Assembly: GCA_964415365.1 (NCBI GenBank) | Contig: CAYPYW010000002.1 | Span: forward strand, 26,264 to 90,263 | Source of the DNA: an uncultured Actinomycetota bacterium | GTDB lineage: Bacteria; Actinomycetota; Humimicrobiia; Humimicrobiales; Humimicrobiaceae | DNA: 64,000 bases | Direction of reading: 5' to 3' | In this document: in pieces, positions 18,574-46,022 of the stretch | How the letters are laid out: each line of letters begins with the position of its first letter | Numbering within the stretch: position 1 is the stretch's first letter | Notes under the pieces: model-generated | Database searches by the model: none | Told to the model about the DNA's origin: nothing | The model's input: only the letters and a program-made list of their open reading frames with translations | Position numbers and translations under genes: made by a program

Positions 18574-19710
18574 TTAATACTCCAGAAGTATTCCATCAGT
18601 ATAATCCCAATAGAATAAAAGGTCATCGTTCTCTTTGAAGTCAGGGAAACTGCCATCATTTTTTATTTCAATTCTTATCTCCCCCAGATCATCCGAAACT
18701 ACCCCAAGCCTTATGTCTGGCCCTTCAAATATGATCGACTTCACCTTTCCACTGAAAAAGTTCTTATTTTCCTGCGGCTCTCTGTCTATCTTTATCTTTT
18801 CAGGTCTTATAAAAAACACAGGGGGGGTTATCTCACTTTTAAACTTATAACTTTTAAATCCAGGTGATTTTTTTATACCTGGAATGCCTTCACAGACCTT
18901 TTTAAAATCGTCACTCAGAAATATCCTCCCCCCACTTTTGGTCTCGAGCATAAACATATGATTATCTTTTCCTATAGAAGATACAGGAATGAAATTACCC
19001 GCTCCAATAAAATCAGCAGCAAATATGCTCCCTGGGCAATTATAAATAGAGTCAGGAGTTCCTATCTGGATTATGTTGCCTTCATTCATAACTGCTATAT
19101 TATCTGACATAGTAAGAGCTTCACCCTGGTCATGAGTTACGTACAGAAAAGTAGTCCCAATTCTTCTTTGAATTTCCTTTAGTTCTCCCTCCATAGAAAC
19201 TCTTAATTTTTTATCCAGCGAAGCCAGAGGCTCATCCAGAAGAAGTATTTTGGGCTTTACTATCAAAGACCTTGCCAGAGCCACCCTTTGCTGCTGGCCA
19301 CCAGAAAGTTCGGAGATCCTTCTTGCCTCAAATCCTTTAAGGTTCACTATCTCCAGCATGCTATCCAATTCCTCTTTTATTCTATAGGAGGGAAGTCTTC
19401 TTTTCTTAAGTCCATAGATGATATTTTCCCGGACGTCCATATGAGAAAATAGAGCAAGATTCTGAAAAACCATCGCAGTATCTCTCCGGTTGGGAGGAAT
19501 ACCTTTCATATCCCTGCCGTCGATTACAACTGTTCCTTCATCCTGCTCTATAAATCCTCCCAGGATTCTCAAAATTGTGGTTTTACCGCATCCTGAAGGA
19601 CCGAGAAGAGAAAAGAATTCCCCTTCCCTGACCTCAAAGCTAACCTTATCGACAGCCAGAATATTACCATAGCTTTTTGATATTTCTTCTACACGGACAA
19701 TATGATTCAT
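18574..19710 (-). CDS. potA: Spermidine/putrescine ABC transporter ATP-binding protein
   Basis: GPSGCGKTT and LSGGQQQRVALAR motifs with a C-terminal TOBE-like domain; last gene of a potBCDA-like operon. Confidence 0.85.
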   Translation of the reverse strand: MNHIVRVEEISKSYGNILAVDKVSFEVREGEFFSLLGPSGCGKTTILRILGGFIEQDEGTVVIDGRDMKGIPPNRRDTAMVFQNLALFSHMDVRENIIYGLKKRRLPSYRIKEELDSMLEIVNLKGFEARRISELSGGQQQRVALARSLIVKPKILLLDEPLASLDKKLRVSMEGELKEIQRRIGTTFLYVTHDQGEALTMSDNIAVMNEGNIIQIGTPDSIYNCPGSIFAADFIGAGNFIPVSSIGKDNHMFMLETKSGGRIFLSDDFKKVCEGIPGIKKSPGFKSYKFKSEITPPVFFIRPEKIKIDREPQENKNFFSGKVKSIIFEGPDIRLGVVSDDLGEIRIEIKNDGSFPDFKENDDLLFYWDYTDGILLEY

Positions 19711-19731
19711 CAGATTTAAAAATATTTCTAT

Positions 19732-20835
19732 TTAATCTATAGTTGAAAGCTCTTCCCAGAAACTATTGTAAGCTGATATTACTTCCTCAGGAAAATTCAA
19801 TTGCCACACCAGCTTAGCAAGCTCTTCATCTGTGAATACATAAAGGTTCTTATCTATCCCCTCTGCCAGATCAATTGAACCTCTTACCGTAGTGGTATAA
19901 CCGCCTTCACTCACTACTATAGCCGCGATGTCGGTTCTCAACATAAAATCAATAAATTTATGCGCCCCTTCGAAATTTACTGCACTGGCCGGGATCATAA
20001 AAGTATCCGTCCATCCAAAACCACCGGTCGAAGGAAGTACATACTTGAATTTCGGATCTGAGGACTCAAGATTTCTGCCTCCACCATCCCAGATATGACT
20101 AATCCAGACTTCTTCATTGCTTAAGAGATCCAGGATCTCAGCACCGGTATCGTAAAACTTGAGTACATTATTTTTTAATTCAATGGCCTTGCTTCTTATG
20201 CTTTCAAGTGTTGCCTGGGTATCGGTAAGCAGATTAGCCCTGGGTATTCCCATAAGGTCCAGGCATATCATCAGAGACTCTGCCGAATTTCTGGAAGATA
20301 CCCTATCTTTCAGGGCAGGATCAAATAATATATCCCAGCCAATTCCGTCCAGCGAACCAGCATACTTTGCAGTGTTTACCACAATACCGCTTGTTCCAAA
20401 CACATAGGCAATAACATATGTATCTCCGGATCCCATCTGCTGTCCGTCCCACATACTCCAATCCTTGCCTTTAAAGGATTCGGCCACATTTGCATAATTA
20501 GGAATCTTATCCAGATTGAGAGGCTGCGCCAGATTTTCGGTATAGAACCGGTTTACCTGGTTTTGTGTGGGCATGATGACATCTGCCTGGCCTCCACCTC
20601 TGAGCATGGTAAACATCTCATCATTTCCGGTTATAAGATTGATATTTAAATTTATTCCGCTCTCTTGTTCAAACATATCCGCCACACTATCCGGCAAATA
20701 CCCTTCCCAGACATAGATCGTCAATTCCTGTGGTACCTGTGTCTTTTTACAGGCCGGAATAAACAGAGTAAGTAAAAGAGCAATTACCAGTGAAAACATA
20801 ATAAGTTTCTTGAATTTCATAACATCCTCCCTCAC
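19732..20835 (-). CDS. potD: Spermidine/putrescine-binding periplasmic lipoprotein
   Basis: Signal peptide with lipobox (LFIPAC); PotD/PotF family length and motifs. Confidence 0.8.
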   Translation of the reverse strand: MREDVMKFKKLIMFSLVIALLLTLFIPACKKTQVPQELTIYVWEGYLPDSVADMFEQESGINLNINLITGNDEMFTMLRGGGQADVIMPTQNQVNRFYTENLAQPLNLDKIPNYANVAESFKGKDWSMWDGQQMGSGDTYVIAYVFGTSGIVVNTAKYAGSLDGIGWDILFDPALKDRVSSRNSAESLMICLDLMGIPRANLLTDTQATLESIRSKAIELKNNVLKFYDTGAEILDLLSNEEVWISHIWDGGGRNLESSDPKFKYVLPSTGGFGWTDTFMIPASAVNFEGAHKFIDFMLRTDIAAIVVSEGGYTTTVRGSIDLAEGIDKNLYVFTDEELAKLVWQLNFPEEVISAYNSFWEELSTID

Positions 20836-20922
20836 ATAATAAAATAATAAGTTTCCTTTACCTAACTATTTTGACCATGTTTTTCATTATTATACCCCAC
20901 CGGCGAATTTAAAATAAACTGC

Positions 20923-21723
20923 TTATCCTCTCTCTTTCATTAAAATTTTACTATATATCTTTCTACTGGCCAGAAGAATTGCAATCACACTTAAGGTAAA
21001 TAAAGTAATAAGAACCGATATTACATTCACCTTTGGCGAAATACCAAATCTGAGTTGTGAAAATATATAGACCGGAAGAGTCATACTACCGCCAATCAGG
21101 AAATAAGTTACTATAAATTCATTCCAGCTAATCATAAAAGCAAATAACCATCCAGCTATTATAGCTGGTACCAGGATGGGGAATATTATATCTTTAACAC
21201 TTGAAAACCAGGTTGCCCCAAGATCAACCGACGCCTCCTGCAGAGTCAGGGACATTTCTTCAATTCTACCCATAAGTATTAAAAAAACATAACTCATGCT
21301 TATGGAAACATGAGAAACTATCACAATAGGAATCCCCAGAGGAATACTTATTGTTCTGAAAAATACCAGTGCAGATATACCGATAGTCAGACTGGGCATT
21401 AATACCGGAAGTATGAGCAGAGTTAGAAAAACACTGGTTCTTCTGACCAGCCCTTTTAATAGCCCTACAGATAAAAGAGTTGCCAGTATAGTGGAAATGG
21501 TAGCTGAGGACAGTGCAATAATAACGCTGTTTCTAATTGCCTCTTTAGCCAGCCGGTCACTGGCAAGTTCCGCGAACCATCTCCATGTAAAACCTTTCAG
21601 GGGAAAGCTATAACCCTCACCGCTGTTCCAGGCAAAGATAAAAATAAGTATGATAGGAACAAAAATATAAAGGAAAAAAAGTGCGGTATATATTATTAAA
21701 ATGACAGACTTTTTATTTTTCAT
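20923..21723 (-). CDS. potC: Polyamine ABC transporter permease
   Basis: Six TM segments and an EAS-DLGA-like permease motif. Confidence 0.8.
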   Translation of the reverse strand: MKNKKSVILIIYTALFFLYIFVPIILIFIFAWNSGEGYSFPLKGFTWRWFAELASDRLAKEAIRNSVIIALSSATISTILATLLSVGLLKGLVRRTSVFLTLLILPVLMPSLTIGISALVFFRTISIPLGIPIVIVSHVSISMSYVFLILMGRIEEMSLTLQEASVDLGATWFSSVKDIIFPILVPAIIAGWLFAFMISWNEFIVTYFLIGGSMTLPVYIFSQLRFGISPKVNVISVLITLFTLSVIAILLASRKIYSKILMKERG

Positions 21724-21734
21724 CTCTACTTAAT

Positions 21735-22622
21735 TTAAAGATTGCCTCTATTTTTATAAATTGACTCCAGCCCAAATATCCTCGAATAAAATAACACCAG
21801 AACTATGGAGAGTATCGCCAGGGCAACAGTAAATGCAGAACCAAAGTTCCAGTCACCTACCCTGCTGAACTGATTTTCTATAATATTCCCGATCATTACC
21901 GAATTAGTTCCACCTAGTATTGCAGGTATGGCAAAAGAACCAAGGGCTGGTATGAAAACAAGTAGTGTACCTGCAAAAATTCCGGTAAGACTCAGCTTAA
22001 AAGTTACATCAAAAAAAGCCCTGACCCTTGATGCCCCCAGATCCAGAGATGCTTCTATAAGAGAATCATCAATTCTGAGCAGCGATGCATACAACGGCAA
22101 AACCATCATGGGGGTGTACATATATATAAGTCCAAGCAATACTGAAGTCTGACTGTATAATATTCTTACCGGTTCATCAATAACCTTTAGCCATAGCAAA
22201 AACTGATTCAGAATTCCATTTTCAGAAAGAATTAATTTCCAAGCAAAGGTTCTGATAAGGTAATTAATCCAGAAAGGTATCATGAGAACTACAATAAGTA
22301 CTTTATCTAATCTGGTTCTTTTAGCCAGGAAATATGCGACCGGATAAGAAAATGCTATAGAAAATATGGTGGTAAGAAAACTGATTTTAAGTGACCTTAA
22401 GAGTATTATAAGGTAGTGTTTTTTTTGAAAGATAACCACAAAATTCTTAAAGGTAAATTCTAATGGTCCTCCTGAAAACAAGTTTTCAGTGGTCACAGCA
22501 TAAATCAATATCACCGATAAAGGCAGGAGAAAAAAAACAATGAACCACAGAAATCCCGGATAGATGAGATTTTTATTTTTACTTCTTATAATACTCATGA
22601 ATTTAGATTTAACTACTACCAA
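21735..22622 (-). CDS. potB: Polyamine ABC transporter permease
   Basis: Six TM segments with EASLDLGAS... permease motif. Confidence 0.8.
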   Translation of the reverse strand: MVVVKSKFMSIIRSKNKNLIYPGFLWFIVFFLLPLSVILIYAVTTENLFSGGPLEFTFKNFVVIFQKKHYLIILLRSLKISFLTTIFSIAFSYPVAYFLAKRTRLDKVLIVVLMIPFWINYLIRTFAWKLILSENGILNQFLLWLKVIDEPVRILYSQTSVLLGLIYMYTPMMVLPLYASLLRIDDSLIEASLDLGASRVRAFFDVTFKLSLTGIFAGTLLVFIPALGSFAIPAILGGTNSVMIGNIIENQFSRVGDWNFGSAFTVALAILSIVLVLFYSRIFGLESIYKNRGNL

Positions 22623-22864
22623 AGTTTAAAGCATATTGTCCATATTAAATTTTATCAGATATTATGGTTTCAAACTACAGATTTGATAAACAGCAGCCAG
22701 TTCAATTACTATCGGTATTTTACAGCTTCAATTCATAGTTATTATAGTTTTAGAGTATTTTTTAATCATCGGCAGTAGATACTGAAGAATATTTAACCTG
22801 ATATTTCAATAATCCCCTCAGGAAATGCTATAATATAACTTTAAAAATTTGACCACAAAAACTC

Positions 22865-23698
22865 ATGGGAAAATATATTGTAAAAGCTAATGGCACTAAA
22901 GAACCATACAACGAACAGAAAATAAGTTCCTCTTTCATAAAGGCAGGGGCTCCTCCCGATATAGCTATAAAAGCTACTGGAATAATCAACAAAAAAGTAA
23001 AAGATGATATGAGTACCGATGAGATCTATCATGAAGCCCTGGGTCACCTGAGAGTAATAGAGCCCAGAACAGCTCTCAAATATTCCCTGAAAAGAGCTAT
23101 CATGGATCTGGGACCGGAAGGGTTTGTTTTTGAAAAATATGTAGCAAGAATTTTAAAAGAATATGGTTATACCACAGAAGTGGGACGAATAGTAAGTGGT
23201 TATTGTGTCGAACACGAAGTTGATGTCATCGCGAAAAAGGAAAACAGGATCTGCCTTGTCGAGTGTAAATACCATAACTCACCAGGAATAAAATCCGATA
23301 TAAAAACTGCCCTTTATATCCACAGTAGATTTCTGGATATAGAGAAAGCCTACAGGGAGAAAGATAACAATGACCACACTTATTTTGAAGCCTGGCTGGT
23401 TACCAATACCAAGTGCACATCAGATTCTATAAAATATGCCAATTGTGTTAATTTAAAAATTCTAGCCTGGCAATACCCAAAAGTGGAAAATTTACAATAC
23501 TTTATTGAAACAAAAAAACTTTACCCCATAAGCATTCTTTCTACAATAACTAGGAAACAGAAGGAAAAGTTATTTGATTCTGATATCATATTAATAAAGG
23601 AACTTGGTGGCTATAGGATGGACAATTTAACTAAATTGATATCTGTAAGCCAGCCACAGGCATTAAAAATTCTAAATGAAATAAGTATTATACTGTAA
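22865..23698 (+). CDS. ATP-cone domain fused to an Mrr-type (PD-(D/E)xK) restriction-endonuclease-like domain
   Basis: N-terminal VKANGTKEPYNEQKI is ATP-cone. The central HEVDVIAKKENRICLVECKYH is the Mrr_cat D...ExK core. An extended -10 TGCTATAAT lies about 40 nt upstream. Confidence 0.7.
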   Translation: MGKYIVKANGTKEPYNEQKISSSFIKAGAPPDIAIKATGIINKKVKDDMSTDEIYHEALGHLRVIEPRTALKYSLKRAIMDLGPEGFVFEKYVARILKEYGYTTEVGRIVSGYCVEHEVDVIAKKENRICLVECKYHNSPGIKSDIKTALYIHSRFLDIEKAYREKDNNDHTYFEAWLVTNTKCTSDSIKYANCVNLKILAWQYPKVENLQYFIETKKLYPISILSTITRKQKEKLFDSDIILIKELGGYRMDNLTKLISVSQPQALKILNEISIIL

Positions 23699-23781: not shown

Positions 23782-24552
23782 TTAATCTTGCCTGTTGAAC
23801 AAAATAGAACCCAATACACTCACTACTATAGTTACGGAAATCAATACCACGGCGTCCAGCCACAGTGGATACAGTTGCAAAGCGGGATTATTTAGTATTA
23901 CAGAGCGCATTGCATCAATTCCATAAGAAAGTGGATTAACTTTAGCGACTACATTCATCCATCTCACTGTACTATTCAATGGAAATAGAGCACCGGAAAG
24001 AAAAAACATGGGCATAAGTAAAAAATTGGTGATCACCTGGAATGCCTGCATGGATTTTATTATGGAGGCCAATATAATTCCCATAGCAGAGATGGTCATG
24101 GCAACCAGGAACATAATAGCCAATACTTTAAAGAATATTACAAAAGTAATAGGTATCGCTAGCAGAGGACTGAAAAGCAATATTATTGTGCCCTGGAACA
24201 TGGCAATGGTGGAACCACCGAGTAGTTTTCCAACAACTATAGAAGTCCTTGAAATAGGTGCAACCAGGATTTCTCTAAGAAAACCGAACTCACGGTCCCA
24301 GACTATCGACATAGCACTAAAAAAAGAAGTAAAAAGAACAGTCATACCCACAATTCCAGGAAACATAAAATCAAGAAATTCCTTACCGCCTCCACCTCCA
24401 AAAGTACTAAAGGAACTTGCAATCCCGGTACCCAGAACAAATAGAAAAAGGATGGGCTGTGCAAACGAACCTATTATTCTTGGTTTGTCCCTATAATATC
24501 TCTTAATATCTCTCAACCATACCGTATATACACCAGTTAATTCCTTTTTCAA
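23782..24552 (-). CDS. ABC-2 type transporter permease
   Basis: Six TM segments, ABC-2 family pattern; 4-nt overlap with the upstream ATPase gene. Confidence 0.7.
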   Translation of the reverse strand: MKKELTGVYTVWLRDIKRYYRDKPRIIGSFAQPILFLFVLGTGIASSFSTFGGGGGKEFLDFMFPGIVGMTVLFTSFFSAMSIVWDREFGFLREILVAPISRTSIVVGKLLGGSTIAMFQGTIILLFSPLLAIPITFVIFFKVLAIMFLVAMTISAMGIILASIIKSMQAFQVITNFLLMPMFFLSGALFPLNSTVRWMNVVAKVNPLSYGIDAMRSVILNNPALQLYPLWLDAVVLISVTIVVSVLGSILFNRQD

Positions 24553-25547
24553 TGCCTCATTCTCCCCCTCATTCTCATTCTGATAATATCTTTGGAACTG
24601 GCATTTTCTTCCCTTATTTCCCTGCCGGTAAGGTCCAGAAATACATCGTTTAAAGTCGGTTTTCTGGCGCTTATCGATAAAATCTTTACCGGGCTGTCTT
24701 TGATTAATTTTGGGATAAAAACGGAGCTATCCTTAACTTCGAATCTAATCTTGCCCTCTTTCGCATCATGCACCTCATTACCAGTAATTTCTTTTACATA
24801 CTCTCTTAACTTAATATTATCTTCTGAAAGTATTGTGATTATATCCCCACCGATAGTATTTTTAAGATTATCCGGCGTGTCGAGCGCAATGATTTTCCCC
24901 TTATCTATAATAGCTATCCGGTCACATATTTCTGTTTCTTCCATATAATGTGAGGTTAAGAAGATGGTAATATTTTTACTGTTCTTGAGTTTAATTATAT
25001 AATCCCATATTTTGTTCCTGGTTTGTGGATCCAGTCCAAGGGTAGGTTCATCCAGAAACAGGATTTTTGGATAATGCAGTAGACCCCTCGCAATCTCAAG
25101 CCTCCTTTTCATTCCTCCGGAATAGGTCATGACCAGGCTATTTTTCCGGCTGGTAAGATCTACCATCTCCAGCACTTCTTCGGATCTTTCTTTTAAGGTG
25201 CTGCGAGGGATGTTATAGAGAAGTCCATGAAAGTATAAATTCTCAAGGGCTGTCAATCTGTCATCAAGACTCGGGTCCTGAAAAACCATTCCAATACAAT
25301 TCCTTATTTTATTTCTTTCTCTGGCTGCATCATATCCGCTTAAAGTGACTTCTCCAGATGTCATTGACAGAAGCGTGCATATTATATTTATTGTTGTCGT
25401 TTTACCTGCGCCATTTGGACCCAAAAAACCAAATATTTCATTTTCTTTCACCGAAAATGTAATACCACCAACCGCTCTTAATCCCTTAAATTCTTTTACC
25501 AGATTTTTAACTTCTATAATATTGTCATTTGTGCTTACATTATCCAT
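24549..25547 (-). CDS. ABC transporter ATP-binding protein
   Basis: GPNGAGKTT, YSGGMKRRLEIA and LFLDEPTLGLD motifs. Confidence 0.85.
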   Translation of the reverse strand: MDNVSTNDNIIEVKNLVKEFKGLRAVGGITFSVKENEIFGFLGPNGAGKTTTINIICTLLSMTSGEVTLSGYDAARERNKIRNCIGMVFQDPSLDDRLTALENLYFHGLLYNIPRSTLKERSEEVLEMVDLTSRKNSLVMTYSGGMKRRLEIARGLLHYPKILFLDEPTLGLDPQTRNKIWDYIIKLKNSKNITIFLTSHYMEETEICDRIAIIDKGKIIALDTPDNLKNTIGGDIITILSEDNIKLREYVKEITGNEVHDAKEGKIRFEVKDSSVFIPKLIKDSPVKILSISARKPTLNDVFLDLTGREIREENASSKDIIRMRMRGRMRH

Positions 25548-38349: not shown

Positions 38350-38427
38350 GGGCGGTTAGCTCAGACTGGTTAGAGCGCTGCGTTGACATCGCAGAGGTCA
38401 TTGGTTCAAATCCAATACCACCCACCA
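38350..38427 (+). tRNA. tRNA-Val (anticodon GAC), CCA encoded
   Basis: Cloverleaf: acceptor GGGCGGT/ACCACCC with one mismatch, D-arm GCTC..GAGC, anticodon stem CTGCG/CGCAG, loop TTGACAT, T-arm ATTGG-TTCAAAT-CCAAT, 3' CCA. Confidence 0.85.
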
Positions 38428-45948: not shown

Positions 45949-46022
45949 TGGCTGGGGAGGAAGGATTTGAACCTTCGATCACGGGTCCAAAACCCGTTGC
46001 CTTACCGCTTGGCTACTCCCCA
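45949..46022 (-). tRNA. tRNA-Gln (anticodon UUG), CCA encoded
   Basis: Reverse complement folds as acceptor TGGGGAG/CTCCCCA, 3-bp D-stem, anticodon stem ACGGG/CCCGT, loop TTTTGGA, T-arm GAAGG-TTCAAAT-CCTTC, G discriminator + CCA. The plus-strand ORF 45720..46070 overlapping it is spurious. Confidence 0.85.

Follow-up and report, generated by a model that had tools for sequence, protein, structure and literature searches.

A predicted nucleotide-gated nuclease: ATP-cone, PD-(D/E)xK core and (HhH)2 domain in a widespread AF1548-family protein

dNTP synthesis is under the allosteric control of a textbook switch, the ATP-cone, whose regulatory mechanism, as far as we found in the literature, is experimentally established only for the ribonucleotide reductases (RNRs) and for NrdR. 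The NrdR design is an ATP-cone joined to a DNA-binding module (PMC9110341), and mutation of V51, K53, E59 and K65 in EcoNrdR lowers nucleotide binding (PMC12176259). Nucleotide sensing is also known from a nuclease, as the endonuclease GajA has an activity set by NTP and dNTP concentrations (PMC8136825). For the AF1548 family, whose members are annotated either as 'ATP cone domain-containing protein' or as 'restriction endonuclease' (Mrr_cat + AF1548-like_C, PF22357), we found no functional or biochemical study of any member in the literature, and a search for a description of an ATP-cone/nuclease fusion returned nothing relevant, subscription-only papers (e.g. Aravind et al. 2000) lying outside that search. 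Here we describe an ordinary member of this large family, which spans bacteria and archaea, on a 64-kb stretch of DNA from an uncultured Actinomycetota bacterium, referred to below as the window. The gene and the elements upstream of it are as follows.

22865 to 23698, forward strand: coding sequence of 277 amino acids plus stop, encoding an ATP-cone / PD-(D/E)xK nuclease / (HhH)2 protein, AF1548 family member
22826 to 22834, forward strand: extended -10 element TGCTATAAT, with TG at 22826-22827 and TATAAT at 22829-22834, without a recognisable -35
22835 to 22847, forward strand: conserved 13-nt block ATAACTTTAAAAA, directly 3' of the -10, with near-invariant columns in an 11-locus alignment

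The initial annotation described a lone gene with an extended -10 promoter and no methyltransferase or specificity partner, and each of these points is borne out. The gene is monocistronic, lying between a divergent potABCD-like ABC importer upstream and a convergent ABC-2/DrrA exporter downstream, with ABC transporters, PFK, FAH and LysE as the flanking genes in the window and no methyltransferase or specificity gene in these flanks. Its GC content is unremarkable and inside the local range. Alignment of the upstream regions of 11 orthologous loci showed that the TATAAT hexamer is invariant and that the TG is kept in 10 of the 11, while the intergenic DNA around this conserved -10 is otherwise diverged. 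The promoter motif TGYTATAATRTAAC has a single occurrence within the 64-kb window. A generic sigma-70 scan left the -10 element unlisted because there is no -35 match, and the generic promoter/terminator scan flagged no terminator at the locus. The 13-nt block has no likeness to any recognised motif and may be the transcription-start region or possibly an operator. Inspection by eye revealed no NrdR-box-like operator upstream of the gene, the conserved stretch there consisting of the promoter and the 13-nt element.

The protein is divided into three domains, the last of which was absent from the initial annotation.

22865 to 23110, forward strand: ATP-cone, residues 1-82, a beta-hairpin followed by four helices
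23111 to 23479, forward strand: invariant junction G83-P-x-G86-x-x-F89-E90 and PD-(D/E)xK (Mrr_cat) core, residues 83-205
23480 to 23695, forward strand: predicted C-terminal (HhH)2 DNA-binding domain, residues 206-277 (Pfam AF1548-like_C)

The Mrr_cat core first proposed from the open reading frame is recovered by Pfam (PF04471) over residues 86-139, with 26.7 bits where the gathering cutoff is 21, and all 18 aligned family members match the same model. The catalytic signature E...D...(D/E)xK is present on an alpha-beta-beta-beta-alpha-beta core, and the D...ExK motif noted at the outset can be read directly in HEVDVIAKKENRICLVECKYH, which holds D120, E133 and K135. The ATP-cone scores just under its cutoff in the window protein (PF03477, 23.6 bits against 25.8, E=7.8e-5) and is secure at the family level: it was found in all 18 aligned homologues at E<=1e-3 (best E=2e-10), a precomputed PF03477 match exists for the majority of database homologues, and when the family profile was compared with the PDB the next matches after AF1548 were without exception ATP-cone proteins (NrdD, NrdR), with the alignments in register. 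An AF2 model built from a 79-sequence alignment (pLDDT 94.2, pTM 0.91), which superseded an earlier run on a shallow alignment (pLDDT 70.5), supports this architecture, and the beta-hairpin and four-helix fold of an ATP-cone is found in the window protein. The C-terminal domain lies under the Pfam cutoff when the window sequence is scored alone; it matches the HhH modules of the RAD51 family, UvrC and PolX, and the homology of the window protein to AF1548 extends over the full length and takes in the helical domain at the C-terminus.

The sole solved structure of the family is that of AF1548 itself (PDB 1Y88), and it corresponds to an N-terminally truncated ORF without the ATP-cone, while a 99%-identical protein of 265 aa has the cone, which identifies the missing cone as an annotation artefact. 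As crystallised, AF1548 lacks not only the cone but also the invariant GPxGFxFE junction, including the equivalent of E90. Any picture of the family that is based on 1Y88 is therefore incomplete, the structure missing both the sensor domain and one of the invariant residues of the active site, and a full-length structure of a family member with nucleotides would be informative.

The residues predicted to form the active site are encoded at the following positions.

23132 to 23134, forward strand: E90
23222 to 23224, forward strand: D120
23261 to 23263, forward strand: E133
23267 to 23269, forward strand: K135

These four, together with E118 and N181, which are also predicted to be catalytic, are each unchanged in 223/223 divergent members, and the junction G83-P-x-G86-x-x-F89-E90 is invariant in the same set. 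The predicted nucleotide contacts in the cone are I5, K7, E13, K19 and Y73. The first four align with V51, K53, E59 and K65 of EcoNrdR, and Y73 aligns with F127, the 2'-OH gate of the NrdR outer site; conservation is high at K7 (221/223), K19 (218/223) and Y73 (216/223), and E13 is kept in 164/223. At the position of Tyr131 of the NrdR outer site the family varies between R, K and Q, and the trans-acting Lys76 lies within a 4-residue deletion, which makes it uncertain whether the cone discriminates between ATP and dATP at two sites as NrdR does. The last helix of the cone passes through the invariant GPxGxxFE turn directly into the catalytic helix. Because the catalytic residues are invariant and the contacts K7, K19 and Y73, validated in NrdR, are conserved in 97% or more of members, conservation and structure lend good support, short of proof, to the molecular reading of the protein as a nuclease whose ATP-cone gates it according to nucleotide pools. 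To this extent the gated nuclease of the initial annotation stands; its anti-phage half does not, for reasons given below. A further candidate site, a Cys4 metal or Fe-S centre formed by C114, C134, C184 and C194, was rejected: the four cysteines are seemingly invariant among close relatives only, and in the divergent members position 184 is Cys in only 61/223 (Phe in 120) and position 134 in 173/223, while C114 and C194 are each conserved in 216/223.

NrdR has the most similar cone by sequence as well as by structure, and this, together with the NrdR design of an ATP-cone plus a DNA-binding module (PMC9110341), raises the question of whether the protein could be a non-catalytic, nucleotide-responsive regulator that employs its nuclease fold and its HhH domain for DNA binding alone. 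We consider this highly improbable. The invariance of E90, D120, E133, K135, E118 and N181 across 223/223 members is not expected of a pseudo-nuclease, the Zn-ribbon of NrdR is absent (TIGR00244 gives 14.4 bits against a cutoff of 124.65, aligning the cone part only, and the protein begins with the cone hairpin), and nrd genes are unlinked to the family among the 77 loci surveyed.

The family comprises 545 clusters (50% identity) at E<=1e-30, and the best 150 of these 545 cluster representatives are nearly all 265-295 aa long and matched over their full length. Members occur in Actinomycetota, Nitrospirota, Bacteroidota, Patescibacteria, Archaeoglobi, Hadarchaeota, Bathyarchaeia and others, and the archaeal members also carry all three domains. 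A survey of homologues for the same fusion thus recovered a fixed ATP-cone-nuclease-(HhH)2 architecture across bacteria and archaea, held at a full-length identity of 40-45% between phyla. The neighbour-joining tree of the family follows phylum boundaries. Across the clade of the window the chromosomal position of the gene is stable among core metabolic genes, Patescibacteria with small genomes keep it adjoining core genes, and in one relative it lies beside recF-gyrB-gyrA-dciA. We propose vertical inheritance of a chromosomal, singly transcribed gene as the best explanation of these patterns. An origin in mobile elements was considered and discarded, as tblastn returned no match in 50,697 phage records, only 2/72,556 plasmids carry a homologue and the GC content lies in the local range. 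A scan of IMG/VR viral contigs, limited by its search patterns, confirmed nothing, and BFVD gave only partial single-domain fold matches.

Gene neighbourhoods were surveyed at 77 loci, taking genes within two positions from crude ORF calls. The 278 neighbours obtained fall into 166 families, the most widely shared of which, a generic ABC ATPase, is found at 20/77 loci; clustering therefore yielded no universal partner gene. The Pfam families of the neighbours are those of transporters and metabolic enzymes, and no DNA methyltransferase is among the top families listed for the 140 distinct neighbours. Comparing these 140 with PADLOC, we found no defence family matched by more than three proteins (mad2 x3, mad3 x2, AbiLi x2, Csx16 x1), and the PADLOC and Pfam matches within two genes are scattered and mostly generic, so that a defence island as the home of the gene was rejected. 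Many stand-alone defence genes lie outside islands, and the absence of defence neighbours is therefore still compatible with a role in defence.

Such a role would be that of a stand-alone anti-phage or abortive-infection nuclease, held off at normal ATP/dATP and released when infection disturbs the pools. Defence systems repeatedly join a sensor domain to a PD-(D/E)xK nuclease, and the fold matches of the core include Can2, Card1, Cdn1, NucC, MspJI and AspBHI; PADLOC CARF_PDDEXK models match the core weakly, a few neighbours match defence families as listed above, and GajA provides a precedent for a nucleotide-sensing nuclease in defence (PMC8136825), whose logic would here be run by an ATP-cone sensor. 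We nevertheless regard this as fairly unlikely. The tree follows phyla, synteny is stable among housekeeping genes, the architecture is fixed at 40-45% full-length identity across phyla, the phage records and viral contigs searched are without the family and plasmids almost without it, and the gene is retained beside core genes in small-genome Patescibacteria. Defence neighbours are not enriched, as judged from 140 neighbours at 77 loci with no genome-wide background. The expectation of an anti-phage function and of defence-island neighbourhoods thus found no support, and the gene has the appearance of a housekeeping or stress gene on the chromosome, not of a phage-defence gene. The initial annotation had also considered the converse, homologues sitting consistently in housekeeping operons with a known role; the housekeeping neighbourhoods are indeed there, but a single known role is not.

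One large clade offers a more specific context. At about 12 loci of Bacteroidota, Ignavibacteria and Chlamydiota the gene is followed, after a short gap or with an overlap, by a hydrolase with beta-CASP and RMMBL domains, whose best matches are aCPSF1 and Cas14-type ribonucleases, with genes for a thymidine/AMP-phosphorylase-like enzyme and for a PRPP synthetase next in line at 6 of these loci. The TP-family enzyme is near AMP phosphorylase, with 506 bits where the cutoff is 535. The trio of beta-CASP protein, TP-family enzyme and PRPP synthetase is induced by microoxia in Bradyrhizobium (PMC6515984). In the Bacteroidota/Chlamydiota clade this operon hints at nucleic-acid turnover or nucleotide salvage, and it lends indirect support to the part of the initial annotation that suggested a stress nuclease, by way of nucleotide-metabolism genes in that one clade. 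The operon was not accepted as a trait of the whole family, since it is confined to the Bacteroidota clade and absent from the Actinomycetota clade of the window. In Proteobacteria the same trio occurs without the nuclease, inside metal-resistance islands, and the functional link may therefore be incidental. The Burkholderia lxa low-oxygen locus was set aside as a home for the module: the part of the published account available to us describes an MBL protein and a P-type ATPase and names no ATP-cone nuclease or TP-family gene.

The same operon bears on what the nuclease might cut. Card1 and Can2, both among the fold matches here, are PD-(D/E)xK enzymes that also cut RNA, and the RMMBL domain of the operon partner is of the RNA-specificity type; with a phosphorylase near AMP phosphorylase downstream, the protein could be a nuclease acting on RNA, which would set off the degradation of rRNA or mRNA as ATP drops and supply the beta-CASP exonuclease and the nucleotide phosphorylase. 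We judge this very unlikely, as the closest fold matches are DNA enzymes and the operon is limited to one clade. The C-terminal domain also argues against it, (HhH)2 domains being classic binders of the duplex-DNA backbone.

That domain raises instead the possibility of a DNA repair or replication-fork nuclease, structure-specific in the manner of XPF/Mus81/Hef or NucS, in which the cone would limit activity to certain states of the dNTP pool, e.g. when forks stall on dNTP depletion. A nuclease core followed by (HhH)2 is the layout of XPF/Mus81/Hef/FAAP24, FAAP24 and NucS are among the fold matches, the RAD51-family, UvrC and PolX modules matched by the C-terminal domain fit this role, one relative has the gene adjoining recF-gyrB-gyrA-dciA, and inheritance is vertical and housekeeping-like. 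Against this, repair and replication genes are not recurrently linked across the 77 loci, the active site is of the Mrr_cat type (E...D...ExK; Hjc reaches 15.3 bits against a cutoff of 21.1), and the only conserved operon partners are enzymes of nucleotide and RNA metabolism. On this evidence we judge a repair function unlikely.

We prefer to see the protein as a three-domain, sequence-nonspecific, nucleotide-gated nuclease with a role in turnover or salvage and not in restriction or island-borne anti-phage defence, a proposal that we hold to be evenly balanced between right and wrong. It would be a cytoplasmic enzyme in which the ATP-cone (1-82) senses adenine nucleotides, the PD-(D/E)xK core (83-205) performs metal-dependent cutting and the (HhH)2 domain (206-277) grips the DNA backbone without sequence specificity, and it would most likely act as a sequence-nonspecific DNA endonuclease switched allosterically by ATP versus dATP or ADP in the cone. 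By analogy with RNR and NrdR, nucleotide binding could either shift the active site directly or alter the oligomeric state. A direct shift is conceivable because the last cone helix, which bears Y73 of the second nucleotide site, is joined to the helix of E90 by the invariant GPxG turn. The enzyme would in this way couple cleavage of DNA or other nucleic acid to the nucleotide or energy status of the cell, and the roles that we favour are the turnover of nucleic acids and the salvage of nucleotides when energy is scarce or during low-oxygen stress.

For the family as a whole we put forward, tentatively and at somewhat less than even confidence, that its members are ancient and widespread ATP/dATP-gated DNases which tie cleavage to the dNTP/ATP balance, that they would be the first ATP-cone-controlled enzymes outside ribonucleotide reduction and its repressor, and that in Bacteroidota and Chlamydiota they take the first step of PRPP recycling. 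If this holds, cellular or imported DNA may be cleaved for deoxynucleotide salvage when dATP is low, or alternatively DNA may be destroyed when the energy charge collapses, and the Bacteroidota/Chlamydiota members would open a dedicated operon leading from nucleic acid to PRPP. The ATP-cone-nuclease-(HhH)2 family would then carry the sensing of nucleotide pools beyond the synthesis of DNA precursors to the cleavage of DNA, and would connect, in a way open to direct experiment, the nucleotide or energy status of the cell with the turnover of genomes or nucleic acids, notably in energy-limited and largely uncultured lineages.

Compared with the systems described so far, the window protein shares parts with several. 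Like NrdR and the reductases (NrdA, NrdB, NrdD) it carries an ATP-cone, but the output there is a Zn-ribbon or the RNR catalytic barrel and here a nuclease with (HhH)2, and it differs from NrdR further in not conserving Tyr131 and the trans-acting Lys76 and in having no nrd linkage. Can2, Card1, Cdn1, NucC and Cap4 of CBASS and type III CRISPR use CARF or SAVED domains to sense cyclic oligonucleotides, whereas the ATP-cone here is a predicted sensor of primary metabolites; the PADLOC matches of the protein are weak (best E=5.3e-5) and lie in the nuclease core except for one Csx1 match over residues 58-193, and the 140 neighbours include no recurrent CRISPR or CBASS gene, only the one Csx16-like protein. 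The Mrr-type (type IV) restriction enzymes share the Mrr_cat core HMM, yet their Mrr_N winged helix, which recognises modified DNA, gives no Pfam match in the window protein even at E<=1 and is replaced by the flanking ATP-cone and (HhH)2 domains, and the phyletic pattern and gene context of the family are unlike those of restriction genes. In XPF/Mus81/Hef/FAAP24 a restriction-endonuclease-like nuclease likewise precedes a C-terminal (HhH)2 domain, with FAAP24 among the Foldseek matches, but theirs is an ERCC4-type nuclease, for which Pfam finds no match here, whereas the window protein has Mrr_cat, an extra N-terminal ATP-cone and no repair context. Gabija GajA is alike in concept, as a DNA endonuclease dependent on nucleotide levels, a dependence that is predicted for the window protein; the folds are unrelated, OLD-family ATPase-like with Toprim in GajA and ATP-cone with PD-(D/E)xK here, and while GajA acts with the GajB helicase in defence islands, the gene in the window stands alone among housekeeping genes.

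Our favoured explanation, given about even odds, is that the window gene encodes a DNA endonuclease that lacks sequence specificity, is gated by ATP/dATP or ADP, is tethered by an (HhH)2 domain and serves in housekeeping or stress. The molecular side of this explanation we hold more strongly than the physiological one. The ATP-cone would bind ATP/dATP or ADP and thereby gate DNA cleavage by the PD-(D/E)xK core, and the (HhH)2 domain would tether the nuclease to DNA, which it may cut without regard to sequence; that the nuclease is instead directed at RNA seems quite improbable. The open reading frame, read from the sequence, is as follows:

22865-23698, plus strand: coding sequence, 277 residues

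The two domains named in the initial annotation are real. The Mrr_cat core scores above its Pfam gathering cutoff (26.7 against 21 bits, residues 86-139) and contains D120, E133 and K135 of the D...ExK motif by direct reading of the sequence. The ATP-cone falls just under its own cutoff (23.6 against 25.8 bits, residues 3-55) and is backed by the aligned homologues (53-83% identical), 18 of 18 of which match both domains (best ATP-cone E=2e-10), and by the family profile, which matches in the PDB the AF1548 structure 1Y88 (E=1e-42) and, after it, ATP-cone proteins alone (NrdD, NrdR), in register over residues 1-74. At the family level both assignments can be regarded as secure. An NCBIfam scan of the window protein gave no match above cutoff, the NrdR model aligning with the cone part alone, and a PADLOC scan gave weak CARF_PDDEXK and Csx1-type matches, almost all inside the nuclease core. 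An AF2 model from a shallow alignment had a pLDDT of 70.5; with 79 sequences, archaeal homologues included, the values were 94.2 and a pTM of 0.91, which implies that the domains are held in a defined mutual arrangement. AF1548-like_C is matched by 8 of the 18 aligned homologues and approached by the C-terminus of the window protein (21.8 bits against a cutoff of 23.9), and the C-terminus of AF1548 matches HHH_5 (E=7e-4), so that the sequence backing for the HhH reading is consistent though weak. The domain matches, the model and these C-terminal matches together point to the architecture ATP-cone / PD-(D/E)xK / (HhH)2: the proposed fusion holds, but its third domain had been missed. The layout resembles that of XPF/Mus81, as would be expected of a structure-specific repair or fork nuclease, a role we nevertheless consider unlikely.

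The fusion is not peculiar to this genome. A word-indexed search returned 613 homologues, many of exactly 277 residues, and an exhaustive search of 50%-identity representatives returned 1,492 clusters at E<=1e-3, of which 545 reach E<=1e-30, the best 150 of these 545 being nearly all 265-295 residues long and matched over their full length; with each GTDB species represented by a single genome, at least 576 loci were confirmed. Among the matches listed are Actinomycetota, Nitrospirota, Bacteroidota, Patescibacteria, Hadarchaeota, Ignavibacteria, Anaerolineales and others, the nearest to the window being Actinomycetota, with Humimicrobiaceae and Hydromicrobium MAGs at 64-83% identity. A search with AF1548 as query adds Archaeoglobi, Korarchaeota, Bathyarchaeia, Aenigmarchaeota, Altiarchaeales and Nanoarchaeota, and nearly all full-length members found by that search carry the three domains. 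In three longer homologues, P0134 (322 residues), P0201 (335) and P0252 (403), the profile matches in two pieces split after about residue 170, indicating an insertion of 45-125 residues in the variable loop that follows the nuclease domain's long helix. Database names include 'ATP cone domain-containing protein' and 'restriction endonuclease' and, wrongly, 'Holliday junction resolvase' and 'pyruvate:ferredoxin oxidoreductase delta subunit'. A 2007 GOS paper predicted a restriction-endonuclease fold for AF1548 from 1Y88, with D38, E51 and K53 as catalytic residues (PMC1821046); we found no other publication on the family, and no functional study of an ATP-cone protein with a nuclease, endonuclease or restriction endonuclease, or under the NCBI product name. 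The AF1548 family is already catalogued, and the window gene is a typical member.

The sole solved structure in the family is incomplete. P0282, a homologue 99% identical to AF1548, is 265 residues long, and its N-terminus (MLRVRKRDGRLEEF...) is a canonical ATP-cone hairpin running on through ...RLGPSGFGFEKFVARLLEEHG, whereas the 1Y88 construct starts at MVARLLEEHG, indicating that the crystallised AF1548 is an N-terminally truncated, mis-annotated open reading frame. The missing part corresponds to residues 1-90 of the window protein (nucleotides 22865-23134) and comprises the sensor domain together with the invariant GPxGFxFE junction and its glutamate equivalent to E90.

Across 223 divergent members, G83, G86, F89, E90, G112, E118, D120, E133, K135, R155, D158, N181 and P221 are invariant, and W202 (222), K7 (221), Y151 (220), K19 (218), T182 (217), Y73, C114 and C194 (216 each), H117 (211) and H137 (208) nearly so. 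A complete invariant catalytic set favours an active enzyme over a pseudo-nuclease, and an NrdR-like regulator devoid of catalysis, whose active site would hardly be kept in 223 of 223 members, is highly improbable. The contacts of E. coli NrdR with nucleotides have been defined by crystal structures and mutagenesis (PMC12176259), and the alignment of the family profile to the PDB places NrdR V51, K53, E59 and K65 at I5, K7, E13 and K19 of the window protein. Phe127, which keeps the 2'-OH of ATP out of the outer site (PMC12176259), aligns with Y73, Tyr131 with the variable position 77, and the trans-acting Lys76 lies within a four-residue deletion. This homology gives good support to the binding of one adenine nucleotide or more; simultaneous reading of ATP and dATP as in NrdR is uncertain. 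The helix of Y73 (residues 67-80) leads into the invariant G83-P-x-G86 turn and then into the catalytic helix beginning at F89-E90, a connection through which events at the nucleotide site could be passed mechanically and directly to the active site. Two cysteines are also widely kept:

23204-23206, plus strand: C114, Cys in 216 of 223
23444-23446, plus strand: C194, Cys in 216 of 223

Together with H117 and H137 they could form a metal site or a disulfide or be purely structural. A four-cysteine set seemingly invariant in close relatives was rejected, the other two cysteines not being kept family-wide.

The gene was said to stand alone under an extended -10 promoter and with no methyltransferase partner, and all three points are borne out. 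The features concerned are:

18574-22622, minus strand: potABCD-like ABC importer, upstream and divergent
22826-22834, plus strand: extended -10 TGCTATAAT, from the footprint of 11 loci
22835-22847, plus strand: 13-nt block ATAACTTTAAAAA, directly after the -10
23782-25547, minus strand: ABC-2 permease and DrrA-type ATPase, downstream and convergent

The gene is monocistronic, with PFK, a Zn-ribbon ORF, FAH and LysE beyond the ABC-2/DrrA pair and no methyltransferase among these flanks. Its GC content is 0.35 (local range 0.32-0.43). Relatives at 60-64% identity keep the ABC-2/DrrA pair downstream and a divergent gene (YkuD or pot) upstream, amid formate dehydrogenase, glycolytic and sugar-acid genes, and a 57%-identical relative adjoins an arginine-biosynthesis operon. 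One 64%-identical relative (locus L086:786-6867) lies directly beside recF, dciA, gyrB and gyrA, a set typical near the replication origin. In an alignment of 11 orthologous loci, the block AAATG(C/T)TATAAT(A/G)TAAC(T/C)TTAAAAA, about 30-45 nt 5' of the ATG, is sharply conserved within diverged DNA. Its TGCTATAAT motif occurs once within the window and, although left unflagged by a generic promoter scan, is real by this footprint. The nearly invariant 13-nt block may mark the transcription start, act as a discriminator or serve as an operator. None of the 11 loci has a Shine-Dalgarno-like sequence before the ATG, and a scan found no intrinsic terminator for the gene. At gathering threshold, Rfam matches just two features of the 64-kb window, the tRNA genes at 38350-38424 (plus strand) and 45952-46022 (minus strand).

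The initial annotation also likened the architecture to what anti-phage or stress nucleases would have, and a stand-alone anti-phage nuclease could sense nucleotides as Gabija does (PMC8136825). In the loci surveyed, however, defence neighbours do not recur. ORFs called in 77 loci gave 278 neighbours within two genes, falling into 166 families, the most widespread a generic ABC ATPase (20 of 77 loci), and synteny was confined to within lineages. PADLOC matches among 140 distinct neighbour proteins were scattered, at most three for any one family, many single ones being to AAA/ABC-ATPase-type models (PtuA, GajA, AriA); by Pfam the neighbours belong to transporter and metabolic-enzyme families, and no DNA methyltransferase is among the 25 families listed. 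A neighbour-joining tree of the loci gave phylum-coherent clades with few exceptions (Patescibacteria; Bacteroidota with Ignavibacteria; Nitrospirota; Hadarchaeota; Actinomycetota, with the window inside). No homologue was found in 50,697 phage genomes, none was confirmed in IMG/VR, no predicted viral structure matched the full architecture, and 2 of 72,556 plasmids carry one. These observations indicate a long-resident chromosomal gene, unlike a rapidly exchanged defence module; a defence role is disfavoured, and the Gabija-like reading is fairly unlikely. Two label conflicts, an 'Elusimicrobia' MAG contig deep within the Actinomycetota clade (L013) and a 'delta proteobacterium ML8_D' protein (P0075, L084-L085) identical to one on an 'uncultured Actinomycetota' MAG contig, probably reflect faulty binning or naming and not HGT.

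A clue to the physiology of the favoured gated endonuclease comes from the two plasmid carriers, Pontibacter (Bacteroidota) and Criblamydia (Chlamydiota). In both, the ATP-cone gene opens a tight same-strand cluster and is followed, with spacings of 12 nt and a 4-nt overlap, by genes for an MBL-fold hydrolase, a thymidine-phosphorylase-family protein (TP) and a ribose-phosphate pyrophosphokinase (PRS). By tblastn, the MBL gene lies directly 3' of the ATP-cone gene in another 10 loci, from Bacteroidota and Ignavibacteria, and TP and PRS follow it in 6 loci in all; MBL-linked loci are scattered across the entire Bacteroidota clade. The loci with the trio are:

L082:2829-6597, L083:7834-11602; also L041, L048, L061, L079: MBL/TP/PRS trio
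L094:7643-11417, L095:7628-11405: MBL/TP/PRS trio

The MBL partner is a beta-CASP and RMMBL hydrolase, with aCPSF1 and Cas14-type ribonucleases as best matches, TP is an archaeal-type 'thymidine phosphorylase' (NF003338, 679 bits, above cutoff; 506 bits against the AMP-phosphorylase equivalog, cutoff 535), and the third is a PRPP synthetase. Our searches turned up no account of what the trio does; in Bradyrhizobium (bll3115-3117), microoxia induces both its proteins and its transcripts (PMC6515984). The operon suggests a module of nucleic-acid breakdown and nucleotide salvage whose first, gated step would fall to the ATP-cone nuclease. This clue has important limits: the operon is absent from the window's Actinomycetota clade among the loci surveyed, and the trio occurs without the nuclease on 127 plasmids or chromids, mostly proteobacterial, beside Cu/metal-resistance genes (Cu P-type ATPases, RND efflux) in both contexts inspected (Legionella and Ralstonia).

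Many Bacteroidota loci have a P-type ATPase directly upstream of the gene. The Sediminibacterium sp. MAG C8_maxbin.045 has two copies on separate contigs (L039:8001-8810, L055:8001-8810), each with a P-type ATPase directly upstream and a beta-CASP MBL gene downstream, and appears either to have the whole module duplicated or to be a mixed bin. In Geoglobus the gene adjoins an AA_permease fused to a universal-stress-protein domain (Usp), and in Ferroglobus it has CorA upstream and DUF389 downstream:

L091:3722-6807, L092:4958-7721: Archaeoglobales transporter-adjoining loci, 2-nt gap or overlapping stop/start codons

The repeated cation-transporter neighbours may be chance.

On sequence, fold and architecture the window protein belongs to the AF1548 family. 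It is not a Mrr-type type IV enzyme, as it lacks Mrr_N, nor, with no methyltransferase, part of an R-M system, nor NrdR, as it lacks the Zn-ribbon; it differs from CARF or SAVED effectors in its sensor and has no such gene context, and it is not an ERCC4 nuclease. In the literature searched we found no experimental precedent for an ATP-cone controlling a nuclease, and by analogy the protein probably works like the ligand-gated PD-(D/E)xK nucleases and the ATP-cone-regulated enzymes.
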